From: an uncultured virus (IMG/VR IMGVR_UViG_3300037963_002983)
Taxonomy: Duplodnaviria > Heunggongvirae > Uroviricota > Caudoviricetes
Virus record (IMG/VR): IMGVR_UViG_3300037963_002983
Direction: 5' to 3' (one strand)
Length of the DNA stretch: 64,000 nucleotides
The notes below the pieces were generated by a model. It saw only the letters and a program-made list of their open reading frames with translations. It was not told the origin of the DNA and ran no database searches. The translations under genes and the position numbers were made by a program. Below, piece after piece: positions 25,076 to 55,483 of this stretch. The first letter of the stretch is position 1; each line of letters opens with the position of its first letter.

Positions 25076-25215
25076 TTCTTATCCCTCGCTTTTTCCCAAC
25101 AACTATCACAATACCCATAGGGGTGAACTTCTTTTGCAGTATAGCATCTTCCACAATATCTAATTTCTAATTTTCTTTTTTCAACTATCCATTCTTCTAT
25201 TTCTTGTTTATTCAT
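25072..25215 (-). CDS. 47 aa zinc-finger protein (not in the ORF track)
   Basis: MNKQEIEEW...YCGRCY...YCDSCW; ATGA overlaps at both ends. Confidence 0.55.
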   Translation of the reverse strand: MNKQEIEEWIVEKRKLEIRYCGRCYTAKEVHPYGYCDSCWEKARDKK

Positions 25216-26567
25216 ACTAGTATTCCCCCTATATTTTCCATACTATCCATTAAAGACATTTTGCAGTTATCTTTGTATTTCTGTATGTTGTCAAGATATA
25301 TTCCTTCTTTTAACCAATCGAAGCCTACATGGTCTTTGTGATTCTCCCACTTCATTAACTTAAATATCTCATCACATCTTCCTTTATACCAATCCTCTTT
25401 CTTGTATGATTTCTTCATTCGTATAAGTTCCATAAGTAATTTAGCATTACCTTTCTTCAGTCTAAAGTGCGGTAGGCACTTTTCTAATAGGCCGTAAACA
25501 TCATCTTGAGAATAAAAATTTAATCTTTGAACAGGTCTAGTTTGTTGTGGAGATTTTTGATTTAGATGTAATTTGCCAAAGCCTATACTTTTGTGCATCT
25601 CTTCCATAAATGCCCTTCCTCTTTCTCCCGTAGCAATTAACCCTACTCTTGGATTGTGGTTTCTATCCATTGTAATATATCCATCGGAGTCTATGAACGC
25701 TGCCGTATAAGCCCAAATATTTTTCTTGAGCATTGTTGGTAATTTGTAATATGAACCATTAACATTAGCAACATCAAGTTTCTTTACCATTTTAGAAATC
25801 ATATTTGTTGTAGTGCTTTTGTGTAGATTGTTCGGCATTCTATCATGTATTTGTTTAGCACCGATAGAAGGACTCTTAATAATTTCACTTTCAATAAAAG
25901 ACATAATCCTTTCTTTTTTGCTTTTAGTTATGGATTGGTCGGTAATATTTTTTATTTGTTTCTTATAATCTCTTTTAGCAAGACGACATTCTTTTTCAAT
26001 TTGAGCATATTCTTTTGAGTATGCCATACCATCTTTCTTTAAATCCCCTTCCCAATACTTACAGATAGAGTCAATAATATCTCTTCTACCATTAACGCTA
26101 TCAATTTTATTTATTTTTCTTAAGTCTTTTTCATTAAAACCCATTTTTAATACTGCGGGTTTATAGGGTCTTAACCAATAAATAGAATCTATGCACTTAT
26201 TGATATGGTCGGAGTAGCCATCAATAATAGTATCAATTGCCTTAGCCATTTTAATTCTTTGCTCTCCTTTTAGTTTTCTTCTAGCCTTTCTCATCTTTTT
26301 AACTAAATCGGGAATGTTTTCTCCATCTATTGAATAATCGTTGGGAAAAGAACTTAGTTGTTTTCTAGCATCACTCGCATTAATGTTTAAATTCTTAGAA
26401 AGTAAATTTACTGCTTCGTAATCAGACATAATATAATCATCAACAGAAGCCAATTTAGTTCCTAATGCTTCCTCAATCTCGTCTTTAGTTTCATCTTGTT
26501 CTTCCTGCAATTCTGCAAGGCGATTCATTTGTTGCGAGCCTTCTCTATATTCTTCGGCAGTTGGCAT
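25212..26567 (-). CDS. LAGLIDADG endonuclease-domain protein with long N-terminal extension
   Basis: WAYTAAFIDSDGYI, IGFGKL, LPHFRLKK. Confidence 0.75.
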   Translation of the reverse strand: MPTAEEYREGSQQMNRLAELQEEQDETKDEIEEALGTKLASVDDYIMSDYEAVNLLSKNLNINASDARKQLSSFPNDYSIDGENIPDLVKKMRKARRKLKGEQRIKMAKAIDTIIDGYSDHINKCIDSIYWLRPYKPAVLKMGFNEKDLRKINKIDSVNGRRDIIDSICKYWEGDLKKDGMAYSKEYAQIEKECRLAKRDYKKQIKNITDQSITKSKKERIMSFIESEIIKSPSIGAKQIHDRMPNNLHKSTTTNMISKMVKKLDVANVNGSYYKLPTMLKKNIWAYTAAFIDSDGYITMDRNHNPRVGLIATGERGRAFMEEMHKSIGFGKLHLNQKSPQQTRPVQRLNFYSQDDVYGLLEKCLPHFRLKKGNAKLLMELIRMKKSYKKEDWYKGRCDEIFKLMKWENHKDHVGFDWLKEGIYLDNIQKYKDNCKMSLMDSMENIGGILV

Positions 26568-41711: not shown

Positions 41712-41953
41712 GCAACTTCCTCCTTGACATATCGTAATGTATTAAGGGTAATAAACATAGCAGTTTTATGGGCTAACATGTTAATATCAATGGTTAATTG
41801 GCCAATTTTAACTAAAAGTGGTTAATTAACCTATTTTAACAAAGAAAAAAATTTTGGAACAAAGCCATATGGTTGTAGAACGGCCTAAATTGTAATACCA
41901 TATGGTGTATCTTTTTGGAAACCCGACTATATACTAAATACTGTTATAATAAC

Positions 41954-42468: not shown

Positions 42469-42587
42469 AGGGTTGCATCTATAACGCTTCGCTTGATTCA
42501 AAAAGAACTATCGATGCAACCATATGGTGTTACTTTGTTGAACCCGACTATATACTAAATTACAATATAATAATAAGAGGTAATAAC

Positions 42588-43080: not shown

Positions 43081-43231
43081 AGGGTTGTGTCTCGTAGTAA
43101 TAACAGTCAAAAAGAATTACGGACACAACCATATGGTTTACTTTGAAAACCCAATTCATATACTATATTGCCCCTTAGTATTGCTTCATGGGGTATTGTA
43201 TGGTTAGCATACAATCTAGGAGATGAAAAAT

Positions 43232-43735
43232 ATGGAATATAATAAATTAGTAGAAAAAACAAACAACATTATAACTTGGTTAGATGTAAACGATGTTGGT
43301 TCAATGGACACAGTTCTAAGGGGCTTAATCACATCAGCACAAGTCGAAGGTCAAACTGAAAAACAATACGAGCAATTTTGGGCTAGTATTCGCTCCCTAT
43401 GCGGTACTCTCCCAAACTCTCCTATTCGCAAAGGTACTCAACAAATATTGCCAGCACAAGTACAGGCCGTTGCGGATTCTGTTGTGAATCGGGTAATAAA
43501 TGCTTTTGTGGGTATTGGTGATAGTGAACTTATGGTTGATACTCTTATGCCAATGCGTAATACATCCGGTGAAAAGTTCGCTGATATTCAAGCATTAGCA
43601 GAATACTTCGGTGGTAGAGTTAGAAGACTTTTGACTGACTCTTACAAAGCAGGTAATTGGAACGGGGAATTGACTAAAGATAATATCACAGGTCTTACCC
43701 TTCCGGTCAAGGAAGCAAAGGAGGCTTCCAAGTAA
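43232..43735 (+). CDS. Paralog family member 1
   Basis: QFWASIR, LPAQVQ, YKAGNWNG; similar to the ORFs at 44662 and 46973. Confidence 0.7.
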   Translation: MEYNKLVEKTNNIITWLDVNDVGSMDTVLRGLITSAQVEGQTEKQYEQFWASIRSLCGTLPNSPIRKGTQQILPAQVQAVADSVVNRVINAFVGIGDSELMVDTLMPMRNTSGEKFADIQALAEYFGGRVRRLLTDSYKAGNWNGELTKDNITGLTLPVKEAKEASK

Positions 43736-43967
43736 GTCTAATCGGTGCAATACCCCATGTCGCACCTATCCTATTCATTGGGAGCATAGCGGAACTCATT
43801 TTTAAAACTAAATATGAAATCTAAGAGTTAAAACCGCTATGCTCCCGAAGTTTTTTTTAGGGTTGCTTCTACTAGTATAAATACGCCAAAGATTAGTGAA
43901 GCAACCATATGGTGTTACTTTTGCTTAACCCAATTATATACTATACTACACCTTAGTAATACATCAA

Positions 43968-44508
43968 GAGGTAAGGTGTCTAAGCAAAAACCCCGTCTAC
44001 AAATGTAGACTAGTTTCAAGAATTGACTTGAAGTAAAGGGGGCAGAAAAGTCAAGGCGATGGACTGTAAAAAATCACCCGACACTACCTCACCTATTCAT
44101 GGAGTATCATATTGAAAAAAGCCAACCTAAGCGAGATGCTGGGAACTTCGGGGAAGCGAAGTAGCAAGGCAAGCCAACAGTGCATAACTGACTTTCTAAA
44201 GAAATACTCCACCTATTCATGAGGGTATTATGCATGAGAGAAAGGTGGAGACCTAATACTTGGTGACTTATCAGTAATGGTAAAATCATCGGACTTGTAA
44301 ATACCCTCTCCTATTCCAATGGTTATTAGTGGCCATAACACTATTGAGAAACGAAGGCGAAAAGTCAAGATTGAACACATAAGACGGTAGGAAATAGTAA
44401 GAGATTGTAAGTCATACCAATACTAGTTGGGACTAGTATGACCTCTCATCAAACATGCTAAGTATCACGCAGTCACTTGTCTTGACGAAGTAGCCGGAGT
44501 TTCTCAAT
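43968..44508 (+). ncRNA. Putative array of structured, end-paired non-coding RNAs
   Basis: Promoter upstream, T tract downstream, no plus-strand ORF in the track; closing stems separated by ACCTATTCAT linkers. Confidence 0.6.
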
Positions 44509-44661
44509 TTTTTTTAAGGTTGCTTCTTCCAACCTACGGTAACAAAAGAATGGGGAAGCAACCATATGGTGTGGCTTTGTCGAACCCGATTATATACTAT
44601 ACTACCCCCTAGTATTGCTTCAATGGGTTGGAGTAGTGGTAAAACACAGGAGGAAATTATT

Positions 44662-45120
44662 ATGGAATTACAAAAGACAATTAATAGAATGAAAAGCATG
44701 CAAGCAACTATGAAAGCACAAAAGGTCAAGAATCCGGCATTGTCGGGTCTTCTAGATGAAGGAGTGCAAGCAACTGATGAAACATCGGCAAATCAATTTT
44801 GGGCTAGTATTAGAGCATTAGTTAAGGCTATGAGTTTAGACAACTTGATACCTTCTCGCTCTACTCTACCGGAAGGAGTTCAAGCAAGCATTCAAACTGC
44901 ATGTGCTGATGTTGAAGAAGCATCAATCGCTTTCTTCAATCACGGCATGGTTAGTCAAGTTATCTTTAGACATGGTAAATCCGGCGGTGGCACTTTTGCT
45001 ACTGCTGAAGACTATGCTAAGGTAATGTCTCAAATGACTGCCGGAAAACTACGACAACACTACAACAATAAAACTTGGGATGGTTCACTTCCCGTAGCCA
45101 TAACGGAGGCTCTACAATAA
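44662..45120 (+). CDS. Paralog family member 2
   Basis: GGAGG RBS; QFWASIR, RHGKSGGG, YNNKTWDG. Confidence 0.7.
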   Translation: MELQKTINRMKSMQATMKAQKVKNPALSGLLDEGVQATDETSANQFWASIRALVKAMSLDNLIPSRSTLPEGVQASIQTACADVEEASIAFFNHGMVSQVIFRHGKSGGGTFATAEDYAKVMSQMTAGKLRQHYNNKTWDGSLPVAITEALQ

Positions 45121-45382
45121 ATCCGTTGAAGCCACAAAACAACCCATTGTCGCACCTACTATTCAACTAATTAGTCGCAGGGGTGAAGAAACTCTTACAG
45201 GGCAGAGAATAAGTCCTACTTAAGAGAAATGAAAAAATTCACTCACCCCTGCGGTCTATGCAGTTTTTTTTAAGGTTGTTTCTACTAGCCTACGGCGACA
45301 AAAGATTAGTGAAACAACCATATGGTTCACTTTGAGAACTCGATTAATATACTATACACCCTCATTATATTGGTGATAAACT

Positions 45383-46332: not shown

Positions 46333-46538
46333 AGGGTTATACTTTCAGCCTAAAGGCGACAAAGAATGAGAGTATAACCAAACTAATTTATAACCATAAG
46401 CCCTCATTTGTACCTAACTTGTCATAACCAAAAAACAACTACCTCTTTAACACACTCCTTCAATTGAATGTATAGAGTATTGAAAATATTTATTGGAATA
46501 TTAGTATTGTATAGTATATAGTATAGAAGTTCGGAAAG

Positions 46539-46836
46539 TGGACAGGCAAGGAGGCAGGGGTGTCCACTAAAATGTCCACTTTTTATTGTGTAGTTTCTTG
46601 ATAGTAATTAATTTATTATTAATATTATTAATAATAATATATATTATGGACATTATGGACATTATGGACACTATATCTATCTTACCCCCTCCCCCTACTT
46701 CTAATAACTATTAAGATTCTTTATAGTTATTTTTATTCCATATATCCTAGAGGGGTGTCCAATATGTCCATAATGTCCAACTTCCTCGCAGTCCATCGTT
46801 TTGGGGGTGTCCATTGAGTGTCCATTGGAGTGTCCA
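46539..46836. repeat. TGTCCA/TGGACA iteron cluster around an AT-rich palindrome; probable replication origin
   Basis: 12 hexamer copies; AT-only inverted repeat at 46613-46637. Confidence 0.65.
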
Positions 46837-46972
46837 TAAAATTCAGTAAGGGAAAATTGCTCATATTGAAATTAACGGTAATAGTTTCTTTATCGTTTAT
46901 TTTAAACATAGTAAAGTCTCTAGGATAACTATGAAGGCTCATTTTATATGTAAATTCAATATAAAGAAAATA

Positions 46973-53517: not shown

Positions 53518-54663
53518 ATGAGAGAAATAAGAATGAGAATAAGTAAGCCTCAAGACGGAGGGATTGATTATGCGACTATTATTAGCAGTGATTTGTTTGA
53601 AAGAGCAGGTCATGTTATGCAAACAATTTACCCCGATAGAGGCGCAAAAGACCCACTTCATCACTCAATAAAGTTATGGTTCAAACAAATGCTAACTAAG
53701 CCTAAAACAACTAGATGGGGACATACTAATAGTAAGCCCAATCAATTGAGGGAAGGTGATTTTGAAGGAGTATTCTACATAAAACAATGCCCTATATCTT
53801 TGATTAGAAAGGGCAGTAAGTATAGAATAAATGGTAAAGCGGAAAGTATCGCTACCATTAGTAATGTGCTTGCTAGAGTATTGTTTAAATCCTGCTTTAC
53901 TGATGATAACGGAGAATTGATGAAAACTTTATTTTCAGCACTAAGCCTATCCGAAGACATAAAATATGTCTTGGAAAATAGAGTTCCTTATCATTTCTTT
54001 AATGACTTTGCTAAGGAAGAAGTAAGATTAAATGTTGCTCAAATAGGAGATAAAGAATTTGCCTTAGAGATTGGTGACGGTGTTTGGGGTAATATGTCAA
54101 TGAAAGATTTACAGTCCTTTTGTGGCTATTATATACATGGTAGACAAAATAGTAAATTTAAGAGAATGGGCCTAAAAAGACTCTATCAAACTATTATTGG
54201 TGAAGAACCTTTAGTTTCGGACATTAAGAGAATGAAAGCATTCTTGATGCAAAATAGAACACAAGACTTGGTGGAGAATAGGGCTAAGCAATTATTAACA
54301 GATATGGCTAACAAACATCCTACTAGAATAAAAATGGTATGGGATGATGGAGAACCACAGACTATGTATGTTGTTGGTAATGAATATGATTGGAAGTTAC
54401 AGAATAGCCAATTCAAAAGTAACATACAAATGGTATCTACTTTTGTATATCAACCTAAAGGAGACGGTAAGAAATGGGGTTGGGTAGGCCCAATTTGTAT
54501 AGATAATATGGCTAGAGGTTCTTCTCTAGGCGACCAATTCGCAACAAGAGCATTAGCAGTTATGAATGATAATTTAACGGTAGCAAGAGTAAATACGATT
54601 AAAGGCTACCTAAAAACAAAACCAAATAAAAAACAAAGAGTTGATATTGATGAAATGTCTTGA
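53518..54663 (+). CDS. Hypothetical protein, possibly with a C-terminal E2-like domain
   Basis: GPICID resembles the E2 active-site GxIC motif; lies between the Ubl and E1 genes. Confidence 0.4.
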   Translation: MREIRMRISKPQDGGIDYATIISSDLFERAGHVMQTIYPDRGAKDPLHHSIKLWFKQMLTKPKTTRWGHTNSKPNQLREGDFEGVFYIKQCPISLIRKGSKYRINGKAESIATISNVLARVLFKSCFTDDNGELMKTLFSALSLSEDIKYVLENRVPYHFFNDFAKEEVRLNVAQIGDKEFALEIGDGVWGNMSMKDLQSFCGYYIHGRQNSKFKRMGLKRLYQTIIGEEPLVSDIKRMKAFLMQNRTQDLVENRAKQLLTDMANKHPTRIKMVWDDGEPQTMYVVGNEYDWKLQNSQFKSNIQMVSTFVYQPKGDGKKWGWVGPICIDNMARGSSLGDQFATRALAVMNDNLTVARVNTIKGYLKTKPNKKQRVDIDEMS

Positions 54664-55483
54664 ATGTAATGGAAATAAATTTACAATGAATGAAAGAATG
54701 GGAGAACTAACTTGTAATGATTGTGGCCTAGTAGCCATAACCGAGTTGTTTGAGCAGAGCGTAAGTTCTTTCGATAGAAAGGGAGACTTAATTCACTCGC
54801 CGGACAAAGTATTAGGTTCAGCCCCTACTAGTTTAGTTCCTAGTTGGGCCAAATCTAATAATGTTCATTTGGAAAATGGGCTTAGAATGTGTAATATGTT
54901 GTTATCAACATTGATGCCAAAACACCCATTGAAAGATAGAGTCGAAGAGTGCTATATTCAACTATACAGAAAGAATGTTTTGACTACTCTAGGTATTGAA
55001 GAAAAAGCAACTGCGGTTGTTTATTATGTTCTAAAAGAAAACAGAACTCCTATTCCACTCAAGGAATTAAGGAGAGAATTTTCTTGTAATACTAGAACTT
55101 TGAACAGGGCAATAAAAAGAATTAACAAACACTATAATGCTCCTAGAAAGGATGGAGCAGACCCAACTTACATGTTGAAAAGAATAACTTCTAAAATAAC
55201 ACTTGATTTGGAGTTTGCTTCAAAGTGTCAAGAAGTATTAGAAGTGTTTGAAACAATAACTAAAGATATGGATTGTGCTAAAGGCACAGTCTATTATGCT
55301 AGTATTTGTTGGATTACTAAGAATATGTTTTTGCATCCAATAAAACAAAAAGATATTGCGAGAAAGGCCAAAGTGTCTATCTCGTCGATAAAATTAACCA
55401 CAAAGAAACTGTTGGCTTTGATTGGTTATGAGAATTGTTCTCAAATAAAAGGAAAACAGATAAATGAAATAAGGAGAAATTGA
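54650..55483 (+). CDS. tfb: Transcription factor TFIIB/TFB homolog
   Basis: CLEC...GELTCNDCGLV zinc ribbon followed by two cyclin-like repeats with HTH. Confidence 0.8.
   Translation: MKCLECNGNKFTMNERMGELTCNDCGLVAITELFEQSVSSFDRKGDLIHSPDKVLGSAPTSLVPSWAKSNNVHLENGLRMCNMLLSTLMPKHPLKDRVEECYIQLYRKNVLTTLGIEEKATAVVYYVLKENRTPIPLKELRREFSCNTRTLNRAIKRINKHYNAPRKDGADPTYMLKRITSKITLDLEFASKCQEVLEVFETITKDMDCAKGTVYYASICWITKNMFLHPIKQKDIARKAKVSISSIKLTTKKLLALIGYENCSQIKGKQINEIRRN

Follow-up and report, generated by a model that had tools for sequence, protein, structure and literature searches.

What does a viral transcription unit produce that has a promoter-like block at its front, a T-run at its end and no gene in between? 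The question is raised by positions 43968-44508 (+ strand) of an uncultured tailed virus (Caudoviricetes; IMG/VR record IMGVR_UViG_3300037963_002983), of which a stretch of 64,000 nt, referred to below as the window, was analysed. An initial annotation had proposed that this unit is a polycistronic array of structured RNAs, each closed by pairing of its own ends, which would be cut apart at short repeated linkers. The analysis presented here recovers four such domains: three exchangeable cassettes (D1, D2 and D3) and a terminal RNA (T) that is constant among related viruses. The reading that we prefer, with a probability of roughly 45%, is that the array is processed into independent RNAs acting in trans.

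Re-reading of the sequence showed the annotated coordinates, closing stems and linkers to be exact. D1 (43968-44090, 123 nt) is closed by GAGGTA..GTGTC / GACAC-TACCTC, D2 (44101-44210, 110 nt) by GGAGTAT / ATACTCC and D3 (44221-44308, 88 nt) by GAGGGTATT / AATACCCTC; all three are on the + strand, as are the linkers that follow them. Linkers 1 (44091-44100) and 2 (44211-44220), retrieved by sequence inspection and a repeat search, are exact copies of ACCTATTCAT, and linker 3 (44309-44320) is the variant TCCTATTCCAAT, whose invariant ATTCCAAT part is the 5' edge of T. The closing stems of D1, D2 and D3 comprise 6, 7 and 9 uninterrupted pairs, respectively, and each starts with G. All four closing stems appear in the minimum free energy fold of 43960-44520, and they are rare: among all window segments of equal length, uninterrupted terminal stems at least as long as the observed one were found in 235 of 63,877 for D1 (3.7e-3), 81 of 63,890 for D2, 12 of 63,912 for D3 and 5 of 63,834 for the last domain (7.8e-5). 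The end-closed domains proposed at the outset are thus borne out, with the addition of a hairpin at 44319-44336 that had been overlooked and that belongs to the last RNA. In folding energy the two strands are alike (z = -2.86 on the + strand and -2.79 on the - strand), and this measure carries no strand information. The linker 9-mer CCTATTCAT is not enriched over the window as a whole (31 matches with at most one mismatch versus 23 +/- 5 expected), so that only its clustering at domain borders carries meaning. No tandem repeats were reported by Tandem Repeats Finder (0 rows); only the linker and the promoter blocks described below recur.

The strongest evidence that these domains are RNAs comes from T (44313-44508, + strand, about 190 nt). 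Relatives were gathered by means of a flanking protein and DNA patterns, and the 60 loci found to contain T represent 37 distinct sequences. T consists of a small hairpin and a long irregular rod. The 5' hairpin P0 (44319-44336) is followed by the closing helix P1 (44343-44352 with 44499-44508; ATTGAGAAAC / GTTTCTCAAT), the 3-bp helix P2 (GGC 44356-44358 with GCC 44493-44495), an internal loop (GAAAA 44359-44363 opposite GAAGUA 44487-44492) and helix P3 (44364-44369 with 44481-44486); the rod core can be summarized as GAA/GGA, then a 3-bp helix, then GAA(A)/AGUA. We read the internal loop of the core as sarcin-ricin-like, a motif name assigned by eye; a K-turn was considered as well and rejected by eye because the positions of the G-A pairs do not fit. 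At the tip of the long irregular stem lies the apical loop AAUACUAGUU (44419-44428), which contains the palindrome ACUAGU and may allow two molecules to pair with each other. About 55 bases on the 5' side and this loop are invariant, and the interior falls into four sequence types that keep the same helices.

A covariance model (R1), built from 16 sequences, found one copy per source on one strand with scores of 125-237 bits (207.7 bits for the window) and a single match on the opposite strand (22 bits). In the alignment 97.3% of the cells are paired and 15 of 38 pairs are changed on both sides, numbers which lean towards structure because the alignment is model-fitted and includes one spurious reverse-strand row. 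When the partners were slid by 1-3 columns only 30-50% of the cells were paired, and none of 500 shuffles reached the observed covariation score. Independently, RNAalifold detected 5 compensated pairs within one T sequence type. The pair table has about 100 cells with G-U or U-G, combinations that would turn into A-C mismatches if the opposite strand were read; this places the RNA on the + strand. T is single-copy in all five related viral records and always stands last before the T-run, and it has no match in Rfam. T is a new, strongly conserved, covarying single-copy viral RNA gene.

Several other identities were tried for T. Whether it imitates a host RNA or is left over from a provirus was considered, and no homologue was found in the genomes sampled: its invariant 28-mer has no match in 185,579 species genomes, and model R1 has none in two genomes (G002 and G003) and 151 sampled genomes of their class, the one with a marine group III record; all of these sets are samples of incomplete genomes. 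A role of the apical loop as an antisense regulator was rejected with its complement occurring in the window at chance level (13 versus 11.2 +/- 3.3). The first 40 nt of T (AUUCCAAU..AUUGAGAAAC) bear some likeness to a CRISPR repeat, which was dismissed because this segment pairs with the 3' end of T and no array exists. As a side observation, the 11-mer GAAAAGTCAAG occurs both in D1 (44045-44055) and in the conserved core of T (44359-44369), with about 0.1 chance matches estimated per 951-nt stretch; D1 may carry a copy of the internal-loop motif of T.

The modules in front of T differ between relatives, and T is last in every array. The order D1, D2, D3, T is found in the window and in its near-twin L037, the only two places where D1 was seen. 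In other arrays T is preceded by (i) D1b and D2, (ii) a manA-like module and D2, (iii) D2 alone or (iv) a manA-like module alone. A further group begins with a module called BIG5, followed by DX and D3, by DX, by DE or directly by T, and yet others are led by an open reading frame (ORF) with DX, D0, the series D2, D0-like, DG, or nothing between it and T. The D1b domain, which occupies the D1 slot in L060, is a different domain with the same outer stem (GAGGTA/TACCTC). D2 forms a family of 8 distinct variants (110-155 nt) with conserved ends, a variable interior and an optional inserted hairpin. D3 recurs in L030, L032, L052 and L058, there behind another neighbour (DX), and is absent from L055, in which D2 is joined to T through one linker copy. 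Domains are thus swapped, lost or gained exactly at the linkers, and the search for the same linker with variable inserts, suggested as a check on the array, did return other domain sets at the same linkers. These comparisons show that D1, D2 and D3 are independent, interchangeable, strain-specific accessory cassettes, and that T is constant.

The BIG5 module (~165 nt; for example 5480-5640 of L002) is the first module of many arrays (also L007, L026, L030, L041, L047 and L049). It contains a hairpin of the cUUCGg type with a stem that covaries (CACC/GGUG, CAAC/GUUG, CGGC/GCCG), ends in ..GACGACCUCUUAAUCU with no N-CC tail and matches no Rfam family.

What do the joints have in common? Among 51 distinct junction contexts (three of them counted twice owing to two overlapping start definitions), an ATTC leader lies 1-4 nt before the first base of the domain in 43 and U occupies position -1 in 42. 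The ends had been likened to a tRNA acceptor, and this was upheld in part: a G-started helix followed by N-CC is present at all three internal junctions of the window (tails A-CC-U, A-CC-U and U-CC-U, with U where an R-CCA tail has A), but among the relatives CCT stands directly before ATTC in only 22 of the 51 contexts. The first modules of the units in L053 and L055 have a ..CAT leader before the G despite having no upstream cassette.

The same arrangement frames neighbouring messenger RNAs. In the coding unit upstream of the array the 5' untranslated region (UTR) sequence CATGGGGTATTG (43187-43198) pairs with CAATACCCCATG in the 3' UTR (43748-43759), and in the one downstream CAATGGGTTG (44621-44630) pairs with CAACCCATTG (45140-45149). 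Pairing of the 5' UTR with the 3' UTR across the ORF, with compensatory changes, is seen in 21 distinct ORF cassettes among the relatives; the paired UTRs are flanked by constant UGCUUC(A/G) and UGU(U/C)GC(N)CC, and in most of these cassettes ..GC(N)CC..ATTC and then a terminal hairpin or T follow (a minority of the 3' tails have no ATTC). The noncoding domains and the neighbouring mRNAs are thus shown to share one end grammar: paired ends, then CC-U-AUUC. A fourth linker, together with the hairpin behind it (43770-43846), had escaped the initial annotation. This copy (CCTATTCATT, 43770-43779, + strand; a member of the direct-repeat families labelled D3/D4) lies between the 3' UTR of ORF 43223-43735 and D0 (43780-43846, + strand), a 67-nt terminal hairpin with a 13-bp closing stem (GGGAGCATAGCGG/CCGCTATGCTCCC) that ends the preceding transcription unit and is followed by a T-run at 43851-43858. 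The closing stem of D0 is matched by only 3 of 63,933 window segments of equal length; D0 is kept in relatives, and in L001 it directly precedes T. Behind ORF 44662-45120, at 45160-45270 (+ strand), a linker variant (CTATTCAAC) precedes a long hairpin and a T-run; the hairpin has inner ACUCUUA..UAAGAG arms and belongs to the same D0-type terminal-hairpin family as 43780-43846 and the elements in L002 and L057.

Two ideas about the linker were discarded. Pairing of the linker with GAAUA-like words inside the modules or T, looked for by eye, lacks conservation and would be geometrically unlikely. The proposal that the linker imitates the 16S rRNA 3' end and the adjoining spacer (a Nob1-type site) was rejected with ATTC following none of 21 16S ends; these ends, from 30 loci examined in the class with the marine group III record, continue with AAGA, AAAA or ACGA. 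An 18-mer search made for the same idea gave 78 further matches, and in the two archaeal loci examined the match was a protein-coding gene, not rRNA. No tRNA was found by ARAGORN in the host rRNA spacers.

The signals that would start and stop the unit are best considered together with the identity of the virus. The relatives of the window virus measure 91.7-94.9 kb and are 99-100% complete. The window contains a morphogenesis block on the - strand (capsid, protease, portal and terminase) and a replication block on the + strand (a superfamily 1 (SF1) helicase of the UvrD type, a protein with a TFIIB-type zinc ribbon and a helix-turn-helix domain, GroEL (Cpn60) and an ATP-dependent ligase). The best named matches of the capsid protein, at 25% identity, are to HCTV-1 and HVTV-1, tailed viruses of haloarchaea, and methanogen-associated viruses are also among its relatives. 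Magrovirales/Aoguangviridae are viruses of marine group II archaea of 90-100 kb with two divergently transcribed clusters, and they carry transcription factor B (TFB), an SF1 helicase, an ATP-dependent ligase, GroEL and an HK97-type capsid related to that of haloarchaeal tailed viruses (PMC10768690, PMC5434244). The window virus and its relatives agree with this description in size, two divergent clusters, capsid, TFB, SF1 helicase, ligase and GroEL (PolB, primase and MCM lie outside the window). The virus therefore fits Magrovirales/Aoguangviridae, and with considerable confidence we regard its host as archaeal, probably one of the marine group II archaea. In the nearest virus record (G001, a 36-kb fragment) the array region is absent, and a BLAST search of the array region and the manA-like module against 50,697 phage records gave no match besides one 21-nt chance match.

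Given this archaeal affiliation, the block in front of D1 (43905-43941, + strand) is read as a promoter of the type with a transcription factor B recognition element (BRE) and a TATA box, and the run of eight T directly after T (44508-44515, + strand) as an archaeal stop, the likely end of transcription. The block consists of the palindrome CCATATGG followed by AACCCAAT and TTATATAC, which are BRE/TATA-like. Its repeated form comprises a stem GGTTGCTTC..GAAGCAACC, the palindrome, AACCCRAY and TATATAC, and can be read as a BRE/TATA promoter of archaeal type preceded by a palindromic operator. The pattern CCATATGG..TATAYW has 8 matches in the window versus 0.03 expected. Six promoter-like blocks matching it are on the + strand (41898-41935, 42520-42556, 43129-43169, 43905-43947, 44562-44603 and 45318-45358), and each of them is located behind a hairpin and a T-run, at the head of a short early unit. 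Judging from the TATA spacing, transcription would start at about the first G of D1. The T-run is found behind T in most relatives. Scans made for bacterial signals were uninformative: 37 sigma-70 promoter-like sites were predicted versus 25.5 +/- 5.5 in shuffles, no terminator was called at T-runs, and 44508-44515 was not called as an intrinsic terminator. Between 43735 and 44566 there is no + strand ORF of 60 or more amino acids (aa), so that the description of the locus as a promoter-to-terminator unit with no plus-strand ORF is sustained. Nor is the unit the leader of a gene: since it ends in the T-run at 44508-44515 and the next ORF downstream (44662-45120) has its own promoter block at 44562-44603, it is not a 5' UTR on the transcript of a controlled gene, as a cis-regulatory leader or riboswitch would be.

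Three further features of the window may be mentioned. The zinc-ribbon and helix-turn-helix protein (54641-55483, + strand; 280 aa) is TFB-like and could be the reader of the repeated promoter blocks. Between the terminase and the structural genes a 451-aa ORF (25212-26567, - strand) has a C-terminal match to an HNH endonuclease (PHROG 5046, E = 5e-6). At 46535-46842 the words GTGTCCA and TGGACA are clustered in both orientations in an iteron-like pattern, including a 25-nt inverted repeat (46647-46671 with 46755-46779) that adjoins an A+T-rich palindromic stretch (46611-46647); this cluster may mark a replication origin.

The unit is represented in RNA libraries. D2, D3 and the 5' portion of T are covered by assembled contigs that come from the RNA libraries of two studies. 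Three of the four runs left D1, the promoter region and the distal half of T uncovered, and X18 covers 44337-44493 at <90% likeness. One contig has D2 joined directly to T without D3, the same form as that seen in DNA in L055. Since carry-over of DNA is possible, these assembled contigs attest presence in RNA libraries, not transcription, and they do not show RNA ends. They start at 44095-44098 and at 44313, in or at linkers, a coincidence that is uninformative on cleavage because strains diverge there and assemblies break.

Are the domains members of known RNA families? As tRNAs they find no support: ARAGORN detected no tRNA or transfer-messenger RNA (tmRNA) genes in the window or in 35 related loci. 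At gathering scores Rfam 15, with its self-cleaving ribozymes, 6S, SRP, RNase P and Y RNAs and riboswitches, has no match in the window or in 20 related loci, and at E values up to 10 the region 43700-44650 gave only chance matches to microRNAs, small nucleolar RNAs and small RNAs far below their cut-offs, with no manA among them. T and D1-D3 thus match no Rfam family and represent new RNA families. The suggestion that EndA might cut at the linkers finds no support, with no bulge-helix-bulge, a 4-bp helix between two 3-nt bulges on opposite strands, readable in the closing stems (the D2 and D3 stems are uninterrupted and D1 has a single 2-nt bulge); leader and trailer of the domains are identical, not complementary. 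Type III antitoxin or CRISPR arrays are not indicated either, there being no tandem units and no toxin or cas gene among 59 ORFs compared with Pfam.

One array module of the relatives does resemble a known family. A 270-nt module in L025 and L038 aligns over model positions 1-192 of manA (RF01745) with 49.5 and 46.4 bits (E = 3e-10 and 9e-9), below the cut-off of 55.2 bits, so that these modules are homologous-looking to manA at a sub-threshold score. The Rfam consensus of manA closes with GGGaG/CuCCC and continues with aCcuu, the same ending of G-started helix, N-CC and U. The available text of PMC2864571 and PMC9964418 describes manA from marine metagenomes and cyanophages as a riboswitch candidate, likely a cis-regulatory element of 5' UTRs. 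In Prochlorococcus phage P-SSM2 (NC_006883) a manA RNA at 142837-143034 is located behind a sigma-70-like promoter and directly before purL. In S-CREM1 a stretch of ~800 nt has wcaG, manA and abiF RNAs on the same strand (PMC9964418, in the part available), which suggests that clusters of noncoding RNAs also exist in bacterial marine phages. manA itself was found in none of the 151 sampled incomplete genomes mentioned above.

On the preferred reading, then, the array would work as follows. An early, protein-free unit of a Magrovirales-like virus would be transcribed from the BRE/TATA-like promoter to the oligo-T tract, and the transcript would fold into four independent domains, each closed by its own ends, namely the three accessory cassettes and T. 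The single-stranded (N)CC-U-AUUC(C)A(A)U joints would serve as punctuation, and the precursor would be cut at them into RNAs of 90-190 nt, whose stability would come from a helix enclosing both ends. The most likely cutter would be the host tRNA-end machinery: an enzyme of the RNase P type would cut 5' of a G-started helix carrying a 3' N-CC, and 3' trimming, possibly with completion to CCA, would follow. The likeness to RNase P substrates rests on the G-started helix, U at -1 and the 3' N-CC; D1, D2 and D3 each have their 5' end at the base of a helix with G at +1. As described in the available text of PMC11143913, RNase P binds the 3' RCCA and also processes 4.5S RNA, tmRNA, phage C4 RNA and polycistronic transcripts. 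Provided that the RNAs are processed, we give RNase P itself about even odds of being the enzyme. The released RNAs would act in trans, binding proteins or ligands and aiding host take-over; for early, strain-variable cassettes a role in take-over or counter-defence is plausible, and the decoy, antitoxin-mimic or anti-defence roles put forward at the outset would be among the conceivable ones.

A number of observations weigh against this model. Only about half of the joints have N-CC, and BIG5 never does; the base after CC is U, not A; and no domain has a cloverleaf or T-arm. The RCCA rule was established for bacterial RNase P and may not hold in the presumed archaeal host. The first hairpin of T pairs two bases upstream of GG, which places a cut before the G inside a helix, and the starts of the RNA-library contigs, taken at face value, are weak hints of a cut 5' of AUUC and not at the G. 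Lack of a T or manA homologue in the 151 genomes leaves host-RNA mimicry without support, and the covariation counts of T derive, as stated, from a model-fitted alignment with one spurious reverse-strand row.

Could the transcript instead be one long multi-domain RNA that is never cut, its linkers being spacers retained as recombination microhomology between co-infecting strains? We consider this possible but rather doubtful. Such microhomology would agree with the gain and loss of cassettes exactly at linkers in DNA, for example at the D2-T joint of L055, with the presence of the same joint in an RNA-library contig, and with the repeated promoter blocks, which indicate a recombination-prone, modular early region. 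By itself, recombination does not account for the ..CAT leader before the G, which the first modules in L053 and L055 keep without an upstream cassette, or for the identical 3' tail of protein-coding cassettes. Each domain closes on itself, so that nothing holds the domains in a common fold, and free variation in their order and number would be unusual for a single functional RNA.

Action in cis, by which T and D0 would be structures for 3'-end formation or protection from exonucleases and the other domains stabilisers or riboswitch-like sensors, is in our view unlikely. T and D0-type hairpins are always last before the T-run and appear interchangeable behind one ORF: what comes after a 170-aa ORF is D0 in the window, T in L021 and L063, and D0 with T behind it in L001. 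The published view of manA as a cis-regulatory 5' UTR element (PMC2864571, in the part available) and its position before purL in P-SSM2 point in the same direction. However, in the window the unit offers no ORF that could be protected or regulated, and the next gene is served by a promoter of its own; moreover T, a 190-nt RNA in which ~55 bases on the 5' side and the apical loop are invariant and the internal-loop core is conserved, far exceeds the needs of a stop or protection signal, and it is single-copy per genome as against many transcription units.

A broader version of the processing model is similarly improbable as a whole. In a general RNA punctuation system every early payload, coding or noncoding, would be a panhandle followed by (N)CC-U-AUUC and would be freed via tRNA-like ends; T would read the mark or dimerise, and manA would be a trans-acting member of the same cassette pool.

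The two remaining explanations are far weaker. Small peptides translated from the ATG present in many linkers (ATTC-ATG-G, CCA-ATG-G) are very improbable: the ATG does overlap the linker/domain border in D2, D3, T and several relatives and opens ORFs of 21 aa in D2, 15 aa in D3 and 23 aa in T, but no Shine-Dalgarno-like site precedes it, it lies inside closing helices, and lengths and tails vary (6, 21, 41, 44 or 45 aa with different tails across the 8 variants of D2; 11 aa for T in L010, L039 and L049 and 20-35 aa with unrelated tails elsewhere), so that these ORFs are not conserved, and changes in the first 14 codons of T are mostly non-synonymous, several of them (V/A, E/V, stop-creating) at paired P0/P1 positions. 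Inverted repeats acting in DNA, as cruciforms or as protein-binding palindromes of an origin, packaging or recombination site, have hardly any likelihood: short palindromes (CCATATGG, TGGCCA, ACTAGT), the equal folding energy of both strands and the iteron-like cluster 2 kb away would suit them, but many of the conserved pairs are G-U, which in the other strand or a cruciform arm would give A-C mismatches, related modules have RNA-typical UUCG loops, the unit lies precisely between promoter block and T-run and is covered by RNA-library contigs, and one array module, the manA-like one, matches an Rfam family over its full length. The reading of the domains as RNAs and not as genes is upheld by the unconserved small ORFs, by covariation with many G-U pairs and by the UUCG-type loops.

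Polycistronic arrays of structured RNAs with punctuation between them are known from tRNA operons, CRISPR arrays and antitoxin arrays. RNAC and RNAD, two RNAs of the T4 tRNA cluster, have acceptor-like ends. Like the array, this cluster holds small structured RNAs on one precursor with short spacers and 5' ends in a terminal helix; according to the available text of PMC11143913 and PMC9697503, phage tRNA operons are matured by RNase P and the companion RNAs RNAC and RNAD have no known function. In contrast to such operons the array has no cloverleaves, its domains are 88-196 nt long, its 10-12-nt spacer is conserved, U follows CC and the host is probably archaeal. In substrates of RNase P other than tRNA (pre-4.5S RNA, tmRNA, C4 antisense RNA of phages P1/P7) a helix of 5' and 3' ends with a 3' RCC(A) tail suffices for recognition (PMC11143913, in the part available). 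The array domains resemble them in the helix of their ends, but N-CC is found at only about half of the junctions of the array family and cleavage is here only predicted. ToxI and pseudo-ToxI, CRISPR arrays and solitary-repeat anti-CRISPR RNAs are, like the array, polycistronic noncoding precursors with regular punctuation. Phage copies of arrays of this type act as decoys. The units of the present array are, in contrast, mutually unrelated, with no tandem repeat, no adjacent toxin or cas gene and only a 10-12-nt linker repeated. In the promoter-early stem-loop (PeSL) modules of T4-like phages small early units are found behind a repeated stem-loop and promoter block with shuffled content, as here; unlike these, the array shuffles noncoding RNAs too and has a second, finer joint, AUUC, inside transcription units.

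A further comparison is manA. It resembles the array domains in being a complex end-closed RNA with the ending G-helix, N-CC and U, it is known almost only from marine metagenomes and marine viruses, and relatives have a full-length manA-like module as part of their arrays, immediately ahead of D2 or T. The differences are that the window domains match no manA and the modules of the relatives score below the Rfam cut-off, and that manA was described for 5' UTRs of bacteria and cyanophages, whereas here a manA-like RNA belongs to a gene-free array with no downstream gene in a probably archaeal virus. In the literature searched, from which most subscription journals were absent, no text pairs 'magrovirus' with 'coding RNA' or 'noncoding RNA', and no such arrays are described. 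New features are the heterogeneous cassettes, the end-and-linker grammar common to mRNAs, the constant terminal RNA and the setting in a probably archaeal virus.

Magroviruses are abundant worldwide and infect one of the archaeal groups that are most numerous in the surface ocean (PMC5434244, in the part available). To what is known of these viruses the locus adds a conserved single-copy gene for T, new structured domains (no fewer than three besides T in the window, with several more in relatives), and an end-and-linker grammar that is shared with, and frames, neighbouring mRNAs. For manA, an orphan motif and cis-acting riboswitch candidate since 2010, it provides a link to a gene-free array, an argument for such RNAs being able to act in trans. 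If the general punctuation system were true, payload release would be comparable to that by the tRNAs which punctuate mitochondrial transcripts, and T would be a ribozyme or the RNA part of a ribonucleoprotein specific to the virus. If the processing model itself is true, no operon of heterogeneous noncoding RNA cassettes would have been described from an archaeal virus before this array, which would also offer a defined substrate for studies of RNA maturation in an uncultured host lineage.

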